Both the position numbers and the translations under genes were made by a program. A model generated the notes under the pieces. It did no database searches, was not told where the DNA came from, and saw nothing but the letters and a program-made list of their open reading frames with translations. This document shows positions 1 to 1,196 of a DNA stretch of 21,584 nt, one piece after another; the stretch's first letter is position 1; each line of letters starts with the position of its first letter. The stretch is from Okeania sp. (lineage in GTDB: Bacteria; Cyanobacteriota; Cyanobacteriia; Cyanobacteriales; Microcoleaceae): positions 1-21,584 of the forward strand of contig NZ_JAYKGW010000076.1 in assembly GCF_035285525.1 (NCBI RefSeq), given 5' to 3'.

Positions 1-39
1 CACGATTACATCCACATGGGTAAAAGGCCAAAAGCCTAA
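1..39 (+). CDS. Possible C-terminal end of the intron-encoded protein (partial; HNH-like tail)
   Basis: Frame +1 is open from position 1 to a TAA at 37-39 and reads HDYIHMGKRPKA*. H-x-x-I-H-x-G resembles the terminal C-H-x-x-I-H-x-G of the HNH/En domains of group II intron reverse transcriptases. The stop lies 10 nt before domain V. Twelve codons are far too few to prove the call. Confidence 0.35.
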   Translation, partial: HDYIHMGKRPKA

Positions 40-49
40 GATTATCTAG

Positions 50-83
50 GAGCCTATTGCGGTGAAAGTCGCACGATAGGTTC
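50..83 (+). ncRNA. Group II intron domain V (catalytic hairpin)
   Basis: Pairs G50-C83, A51-U82, G52-U81, C53-G80, C54-G79, U55-A78, A56-U77 and U57-A76. Bulge C74-G75. Pairs U58-A73, G59-C72, C60-G71, G61-C70, G62-U69 and U63-G68. The loop is GAAA at 64-67. Confidence 0.85.
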
Positions 84-126
84 TGAAGGAGAGGTGCGAG
101 GGATAATACCCTCCATCGACTCTAAC

Positions 127-1196
127 AAGAAAAAATTACTCCAGCTCTCCTTAATATCAATGCTGTCAACCAAAGCTTAGTTGATAGTAAAATGATTGAA
201 ATAGATGGTTCCGTTAATAAAAGCAACTTAGGAGCAAATGCAATTCTGGCAGTTTCTCTAGCCACAGCTAAAGCAGCAGCTAATTCTGTTGGTATGCCAT
301 TATATCGCTATCTAGGTGGACCACAAGCTAATTTATTACCAGTTCCTCTAATGAATGTTATTAACGGAGGCGCTCATGCTGCTAATAACGTAGATATTCA
401 AGAATTTATGATTGTACCTGTGGGTGCTAGTTCATTTAAAGAAGCATTGCGTTGGGGAGCGGAAGTATTTGCGACTCTTAGTGGAGTTTTAAAAGAGAAA
501 GGTCTATTAGGTGGAGTTGGAGACGAAGGTGGTTATGCTCCTAACTTGGGGTCAAACCAAGAAGCATTAGATATTTTAATTGCAGCTATTGAAAAAACTG
601 GTTATAAACCAGGAGAACAAATTGCTTTAGCGTTAGATGTAGCTGCTACAGAATTTTACCAAGATGGTAATTATATCTATGATGGAGCAACTCATTCTCC
701 TAGTGAACTGATTGATTATTTAGCTAGTTTGGTTGACCAATATCCTATTGTGTCCATAGAAGATGGTTTACATGAAGAAGATTGGGAAAGTTGGGTCCAA
801 CTAACCCAAAAGTTAGGCAATAAAGTTCAATTAGTAGGAGATGACTTATTTGTTACTAATGCTTCTCGTCTGCAAAAAGGTATTGAGCAGGGTGCTGGTA
901 ACTCAATTTTGATTAAACTCAATCAAATAGGTTCCTTGACTGAAACTCTAGAAACAATTGATTTAGGAACTCGTAATGGTTATCGCTCAGTTATTAGTCA
1001 CCGTTCCGGAGAAACAGAAGATACAACTATTGCTGATTTAGCCGTAGGAACTCGCGCAGGTCAGATTAAAACTGGTTCTCTTTGTCGTAGCGAACGGGTG
1101 GCCAAATATAACCGACTGTTGCGCATTGAAGATGAATTGGGCGATCTCGCTGTCTATGCAGGTGCAATAGGTTTAGGGCTAAAAGGTAAAAGTTAG
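127..1196 (+). CDS. eno: Enolase (phosphopyruvate hydratase), 3' exon, about 355 codons
   Basis: Translation carries enolase hallmarks: [35 protein letters not shown] and LLRIEDELG. The same frame is open upstream of the track ATG (192) and reads (x)[28 protein letters not shown], which matches the conserved enolase segment before the DG(T/S)xNK motif. The N-terminal ~75 codons are missing and must lie beyond the intron. Confidence 0.93.

Follow-up and report, generated by a model that had tools for sequence, protein, structure and literature searches.

The 21,584-nt contig NZ_JAYKGW010000076.1 of an Okeania metagenome-assembled genome (MAG; assembly GCF_035285525.1), analysed here in its entirety and called the window below, opens with what is almost certainly the 3′ end of a group II intron abutting codon 73 of the gene for the glycolytic enzyme enolase. 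Judged from this locus and from related intron copies, we consider it likely that enolase is encoded here by a functional split gene whose exons would be joined by splicing in cis. An initial annotation, made from the letters of the contig alone, had proposed that enolase is split by such an intron, with a 3′ splice junction at about 126/127, and had pointed to Trichodesmium as a parallel.

The 3′ end of a group II intron

The Rfam group II intron model RF00029 matched window positions 48-126 from end to end (model 1-77 of 77) with 53.6 bits (E 3.4e-8), compared with a gathering score of 40 bits, and this was the sole Rfam match across the 21,584 nt. The intron identity put forward in the initial annotation, which had named the Rfam models as a check, was thus accepted by the model. 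Domain V reads GAGCCTATTGCGGTGAAAGTCGCACGATAGGTTC, and its AGC triad, GAAA tetraloop and two-nucleotide bulge lie where the initial annotation had seen them (Table 1), in agreement with the Rfam match, the predicted fold and covariation. The bulge consists of A73-C74 when the domain is drawn canonically; the minimum-energy fold computed with ViennaRNA places the asymmetry on the opposite strand to A73-C74. Domain VI forms a hairpin in which A119 (together with G118) stays unpaired; A119 lies 7 nt from the ...AAC with which the intron ends at position 126. This hairpin and its unpaired A119 had also been predicted, and the Rfam alignment, the fold and three compensatory changes within domain VI bear them out.

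The 83-nt stretch holding both domains folded with -34.6 kcal/mol (z = -3.98), and 0 of 200 shuffled sequences folded equally well. Eight intron copies, which represent three distinct sequences, have standard pairs at all 27 positions drawn, and compensatory double changes were found in six pairs (three in domain V, three in domain VI), a result matched by 0 of 500 shuffles. The sequence therefore combines the features that define a group II intron 3′ end: a domain V, a domain VI with an unpaired candidate branch-point A, and a terminal AY.

Upstream of domain V, the translation of window 1-39 is identical to the C-terminus of a 499-aa intron protein from Dapis sp. BLCC M126 (P0404), and its residues extend the HNH motif ...HESCHDYIH... 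of three related copies described below (L089, L090 and L091). These last 12 codons are all that the window holds of the intron protein.

The 3′ splice junction lies within codon 73

The enolase frame is closed by the TAA at 123-125, as initially noted, and is then open from 126 to the TAG at 1194-1196. In Okeania hirsuta (L083) and Dapis (L086), whose enolase genes are uninterrupted, the site reads ...AAA AAC GTA G/AA GAA CAA ATT ACC..., and across the same site the window reads ...GACTCTAAC/AA GAA AAA ATT ACT.... In this alignment the first window base homologous to enolase is 127, the second base of codon 73 (Glu), and the junction is therefore placed exactly at 126/127. The first residue of the resumed frame, which the initial annotation had left as 'x', is identified as Glu73 from the same relatives. 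The intron lies on the coding strand of enolase, and its excision would give back GAA at codon 73.

The boundary does not depend on the Rfam model alone, since seven sibling copies of the intron, representing five different insertion sites, all part from the window sequence exactly at 126/127. Taken together, the end of the Rfam match, the siblings and the start of enolase homology turned the approximate junction of the initial annotation into an exact one.

The 3′ exon encodes an undamaged part of enolase at the orthologous locus

Pfam matches on exon 2 cover Enolase_N positions 70-131 of 131 and Enolase_C positions 3-290 of 296 (E 3e-126). The exon runs for 356 codons without stop or frameshift and keeps all catalytic motifs, including QIKTG; over the part of the protein that this exon encodes, the domain matches and the catalytic and metal-binding residues mark its product as an enolase. 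The nearest homologues, 91-94% identical, come from Dapis, Trichodesmium sp. MO_231.B1, Okeania spp. and T. erythraeum IMS101, which upholds both the enolase identity assigned in the initial annotation and, for a contig of the Okeania clade, the aptness of the Trichodesmium parallel. Nearly all of these nearest enolases are 428 aa long, and the few shorter ones are partial sequences at contig edges. Among the 120 best matches listed, which extend down to 82% identity, none is interrupted at the codon 73 site, and none exceeds 94% identity to exon 2 or is named from this MAG.

The genes downstream of exon 2 are syntenic with those that follow the uninterrupted enolase gene in O. hirsuta and Dapis, the shared set including methyltransferases, a 2-oxoglutarate (2OG) oxygenase, NAD-dependent oxidoreductases, a sulfotransferase and an alcohol dehydrogenase (ADH). 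This shared order identifies the sequence as the orthologous enolase locus rather than a stray fragment.

The first 90 nt of the exon (window 127-216, codons 74-103) are its most diverged part, with 79% identity to Dapis and O. hirsuta compared with 81-93% in the other 90-nt windows of exon 2. Over these first 30 codons the synonymous substitution rate (dS) is 1.1-1.35, against 0.56-0.72 in the remainder, and the nonsynonymous rate (dN) is higher too. Between Dapis and O. hirsuta the same 90 nt are the most conserved stretch (96%), and the segment in the window has EEKITPALL in common with other Okeania species. It may be a recombination or co-conversion tract brought in with the intron, on the statistically weak basis of 30 codons.

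Sibling copies reveal the architecture of the intron family

An exact search of public metagenomes with the 34-nt domain V yielded four of the siblings (L088-L091), and three full-length copies (L092-L094) were reached through the intron protein; all seven come from other assemblies. They are 86-99% identical to the 3′ end in the window over 100-126 aligned nt each, and the domain V 34-mer is present unchanged in L088-L093. Window 1-126 is 95.2% identical to positions 2075-2200 of the full-length intron of L093. The 3′ ends read ...CTCTAAC in all copies but L094 (...CTATAAC), and are followed by unlike flanks.

The complete introns of L092 (3391-5587) and L093 (3386-5585) measure 2197 and 2200 nt. 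Together with that of L094 they start with GTGCGACTCG, a GTGCG 5′ end, and carry about 610 nt (domains I-III) ahead of the intron open reading frame (ORF). The intron protein of L092 and L093, about 499 aa, contains RVT_N, RVT_1 and GIIM domains (Pfam, on the sibling protein P0153), and a C-terminal HNH motif, CGHCG...HHxDGNHDN...HESCHDYIH, can be read straight from the sibling protein sequence. From protein length, host phylum and motifs, as opposed to phylogeny, the intron appears to be a mobile, chloroplast-like element of IIB type, probably CL2.

Removal of the intron in silico restores host reading frames at two of the sibling loci. In L093 it lies between two ORFs, one of 49 aa matching Ribosomal_S30AE positions 2-36 and one of 182 aa matching positions 41-88 and the C-terminal domain, and deletion of 3386-5585 produced a continuous 211-aa HPF (hpf, ribosome hibernation factor). 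The same operation on L092 produced a continuous 105-aa DUF2605 protein. The 3′ exon of L088 belongs to a CHC2 zinc-finger, primase-like gene.

The copies vary in two short stretches of domain I. In L092 and L093 the hexamer at one of these, exon-binding site 1 (EBS1), is the reverse complement of the last bases of the 5′ exon at that locus; L092 pairs GTATTT with AAATAC, and L093 pairs TACATC with GATGTA. In L092 a candidate EBS2, ACTTCC, pairs with GGAAGT at -12 to -7. Such matches between exon-binding and intron-binding sites (EBS-IBS), each at the copy's own location, show an intron lineage that, on this pairing, changes its targets.

The family is multi-copy. Clustering at 90% identity placed 26 intron proteins together, from genomes labelled Okeania, Dapis, Trichodesmium and Crocosphaera; Okeania sp. 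KiyG1 has three identical copies, and a degraded reverse-transcriptase copy (MEB3340054, P0411) comes, to judge by its accession number, from seemingly the same MAG as the window. Other assemblies likewise break 23-206 nt upstream of domain V.

The remaining full-length copy, in L094 (3301-5853; GCA_029976225.1, JARPNX010003790.1), is complete, and after it comes trpS coding sequence starting near residue 37 (NFFCVVDLHAITVPHNP...). The 3.3 kb upstream of this copy is AT-rich, non-coding and packed with dispersed repeats of about 90 nt.

Proposed structure and splicing of the enolase gene

In the arrangement we propose, the chromosomal enolase gene of an Okeania-clade cyanobacterium has received an intron of this family, which lies in sense orientation behind the first base of codon 73 (Glu) and would have reached this site through retrohoming or retrotransposition, with pairing of EBS1/EBS2 to the 5′ exon as its guide. 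About 2.07 kb more of the intron would lie upstream of the window, with a 5′ GTGCG, domains I-IV and the gene for a protein of about 499 aa bearing reverse transcriptase, maturase and HNH endonuclease domains. Ahead of it would stand a 217-nt 5′ exon, with an expected boundary of ...AAY GTN G/GTGCGACTCGTTC..., and the assembly would have broken inside the intron because it is a multi-copy repeat. Splicing would begin with attack of the A119 2′-OH on the 5′ splice site, followed by exon ligation, and would be aided by the intron's own or a paralogous maturase; the product would have GAA back at codon 73 and encode a 428-aa enolase.

In enolase, the second Mg2+ is bound by the active-site loop PSGASTG. 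Exon 1 would carry this loop, so that, if its role is as described, the product of exon 2 alone would be inactive and glycolysis would depend on splicing.

The window starts inside the intron, 49 nt before domain V, and carries exactly 126 nt of the intron repeat, which equals k-1 for a de Bruijn assembly with k=127. This would fit a break of the assembly graph at the repeat boundary, had the assembler used that k.

Searches for the 5′ side of the gene

Neither enolase residues 1-72 (Enolase_N 1-69, including the PSGASTG loop) nor the remaining 2.07 kb or so of the intron was found in the window by tblastn or blastn. A metagenome scan for the domain V-to-exon-2 junction, with wobble positions made degenerate, returned 0 matches. 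A genome-collection scan with the exon-2 protein returned, among the matches listed, distant enolases only (<=80% identity) and none from Okeania or Trichodesmium. Neither the exon-2 ORF nor the first gene downstream had an exact match when looked up as a protein, and a 438-aa downstream gene had its only identical match on a 2.4-kb Logan contig of SRR19514071 that does not reach enolase.

Several candidates were set aside. The reverse-transcriptase fragment P0411, considered as a marker of the missing contig, is a degraded internal piece with YAED in place of YADD. A 504-aa ORF at the far end of the window, of the size of the intron protein, proved by Pfam to be a GMC oxidoreductase. The enolase of Okeania sp. 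SIO3C4 breaks 30 nt downstream of the site, through strain heterogeneity rather than an intron; its fragment P0273 spans codon 73. Short N-terminal enolase fragments on long contigs were also checked as further cases of an intron in enolase. P0297 (L096, 6001-7289) reflects a frameshift between an 83-aa and a 343-aa ORF 5 nt apart, P0284 (L095, 6210-6472) runs into a tandem MITE-like repeat of the GTTGAGTTTGTAGG type (MITE, miniature inverted-repeat transposable element) at a contig end, and P0317 ends in Nextera adapter sequence. The enolase genes of L095 and L096, from two other cyanobacterial assemblies, are thus broken near codons 70-76, though by causes other than an intron.

A live split gene and its alternatives

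A live split gene is supported by the synteny of the locus, the intact catalytic motifs, purifying selection on exon 2 and the restoration of reading frames when sibling introns are removed, and further by an exon 2 free of defects, the sense orientation of the intron and the lack of a second enolase among the 120 best matches. A number of observations weigh against it. For the enolase copy, no sequence was seen of the 5′ exon, of domains I-IV or of the greater part of the intron protein gene, and a profile search that combined the N-termini of enolases from the clade with a predicted read-through tail, GATRSY, found no exon-1 fragment ending in that tail (...KNV-GATRSY*). The dN/dS of exon 2 against its relatives, 0.055-0.066, mostly records the history before the insertion and is no proof that the gene still functions. 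At L094 no 5′ exon of trpS occurs within 3.3 kb upstream of the intron, and the EBS1 of that copy pairs poorly with its own 5′ flank. L094 shows that exons of this intron family can become separated, biologically or through mis-assembly; for the locus itself, mis-assembly and a rearranged pseudogene are candidate explanations, with trans-splicing the least likely one.

The same L094 picture, a complete intron with no 5′ exon nearby, lends some weight to the idea that the enolase gene is dead: recombination between intron copies would have lost or moved the 5′ exon, leaving an orphan 3′ exon and enolase supplied by another gene. The extensive pseudogene number reported for T. erythraeum (PMC4649490) and the degraded reverse-transcriptase fragment in apparently the same MAG point the same way. 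An orphan exon is, however, hard to square with 356 codons without stop or frameshift, conserved catalytic motifs, a dN/dS of about 0.06 and a conserved syntenic locus, and no other enolase attributable to this MAG occurs among the 120 best matches listed; we regard a dead gene as unlikely. Were the two exons detached and yet both expressed, enolase, like trpS at L094, would be made from two transcription units by trans-splicing of a fragmented group II intron, which we judge improbable. Such a locus would parallel, in a core metabolic gene of a bacterium, the trans-spliced introns of organelles, within an intron family that retargets through EBS1/EBS2 into conserved single-copy genes of the Okeania-Trichodesmium clade.

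An intron-less allele might instead persist, in other copies of a polyploid chromosome or in co-binned strains, and free the cell from dependence on splicing. Trichodesmium has about 100 chromosome copies (PMC8919778), and in Okeania SIO3C4 two enolase fragments, P0273 and P0101, differ where they overlap. Against this, no full-length enolase above 94% identity was among the 120 matches listed, from a collection that includes the Logan assembly SRR19514071 with its identical downstream genes, and the contig continues unbroken across the junction for 126 nt of intron, an observation that speaks against any strong intron-less branch there. Heterogeneity of this kind seems to us quite unlikely. 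An assembly chimera, in which the first 126 nt came from an intron copy elsewhere and were misjoined to enolase, is very improbable. The intron is a multi-copy repeat of the kind that metagenome assemblers do mis-join, and L094 might itself be such a product; yet here the join falls exactly on the last base of the intron, the enolase match to relatives stops at that very base, and no k-mer is common to the intron end and enolase codon 73. Because a mis-join needs shared sequence, a join without it is the signature of a true insertion. The functional, cis-spliced gene thus remains the explanation that we favour.

Other features of the contig

The features discussed are collected in Table 1. Downstream of enolase, the ORFs are exact matches to the NCBI proteins MEB3340618-MEB3340628 (taxid 3100323). 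Between 1931 and 21424 they form a run of tailoring-type genes, with an ABC-2 permease on the opposite strand; the region is partly syntenic with Okeania and Dapis and looks like a conserved biosynthetic or modification cluster. Its first member (1931-2359) is a 142-aa methyltransferase ORF covering Methyltransf_25 positions 1-45 of 97 only, compared with 226-244 aa in syntenic relatives, and is probably truncated or frameshifted. Intergenic repeats of about 70-110 nt at 13538-13801, 15875-15969 and 17467-17848 are 67-82% identical to the non-coding DNA of L094, other stretches of which match Okeania and Dapis loci; they look like small MITE-type repeats typical of the clade.

Table 1. Positions of intron, enolase and neighbouring features in the window, and of sibling loci on their own contigs
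Feature	Position	Strand	Description	Evidence
3′-terminal 126 nt of group II intron	1..126	+	about 2.2 kb long in full-length siblings	
C-terminus of intron reverse transcriptase/maturase/HNH protein	1..39	+	last 12 codons HDYIHMGKRPKA and TAA stop, frame 1	
Domain V	50..83	+	AGC triad 51-53, GAAA tetraloop 64-67, 2-nt bulge 73-74	RF00029, fold, covariation
Domain VI hairpin	88..123	+	A119 candidate branch point	Rfam alignment, fold, covariation
3′ splice junction	126..127	+	...CTCTAAC / AAGAAAAAATT...	RF00029 end, sibling divergence, start of enolase homology
Enolase 3′ exon	127..1196	+	codon 73 bases 2-3 to TAG; 356 residues (73-428)	translation, Pfam, homologues
Tailoring-type genes	1931..21424	+	S-adenosylmethionine (SAM) methyltransferases, 2OG-Fe(II) oxygenase, two NAD(P) oxidoreductases, two sulfotransferases, ADH, mandelate racemase-like enzyme, Asp/Asn beta-hydroxylase, GMC oxidoreductase	
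Sibling locus L093	3266-6101		hpf	
Sibling locus L092	3203-5900		DUF2605	
Sibling locus L088	1572-4799	minus	CHC2	

Comparison with known systems

If the gene is live, the central carbon metabolism of a filamentous marine cyanobacterium rests on the splicing of a retroelement by ribozyme and maturase, and enolase joins the few bacterial housekeeping genes in which group II introns are tolerated. The pattern of intron-rich conserved genes known from Trichodesmium would then reach its benthic sister genus Okeania, and the siblings in hpf, trpS, the DUF2605 gene and the primase-like gene support the same pattern. With near-identical ribozyme cores and a site-specific EBS1, the copies make up a natural retargeting series that could inform how target specificity evolves. 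Introns of this kind also break assemblies and leave core genes annotated as partial or as pseudogenes, by which metabolic reconstructions from MAGs can be distorted.

Most bacterial group II introns avoid housekeeping genes, and the chloroplast-like introns of cyanobacteria are a recognised exception (PMC4424553, PMC6003770). In T. erythraeum, in vivo splicing is documented for 17 introns, whose 10 host genes are apcD, IMP dehydrogenase, thymidylate synthase, gvpA, two lysozymes, a protease, nrdJ, dnaN and Tery_4732 (PMC4143802, PMC4649490). Enolase is not in this host list (Table 2 of PMC4143802), and no report linking enolase with a cyanobacterial or Trichodesmium group II intron was found in a literature search whose coverage does not extend to all journals. 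Enolase is thus a new host gene, and Okeania a new genus, for a phenomenon already known in Trichodesmium. The introns of T. erythraeum IMS101 resemble the present one in their clade (the enolases are 92% identical), in their sense orientation within conserved single-copy genes and in forming multi-copy families of which some members have their own maturase and some do not; related intron proteins are found in Trichodesmium as well (P0169, 80% identical, and P0400). They differ in that the enolase of T. erythraeum is itself uninterrupted (P0029, 428 aa) and in that splicing was demonstrated there, whereas here it is predicted from sequence.

The closest solved relative of the intron protein, also cyanobacterial, is the group IIB maturase/reverse transcriptase of Thermosynechococcus T.el4h (6ME0, 6MEC, 8FLI); the match to 6ME0 chain C has an E of 1.1e-69 over residues 4-360, and the T.el4h protein is longer, with 562 residues compared with 499 in this family. 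CL2B introns have been described as keeping the endonuclease and having a shortened DNA-binding region (PMC8919778, PMC4424553), and the present family is like the CL2A/CL2B introns in its cyanobacterial host, its HNH-bearing protein of about 500 aa (which fits CL2B), its GTGCG 5′ end and its IIB-like domains V and VI. With the group II introns of organelles it would share residence as a stable insertion in a core metabolic gene whose expression in the host depends on efficient splicing. Organellar introns, however, are mostly immobile and dependent on host factors, whereas this family has a complete reverse transcriptase/maturase/endonuclease, occupies many sites and is still retroelement-like.

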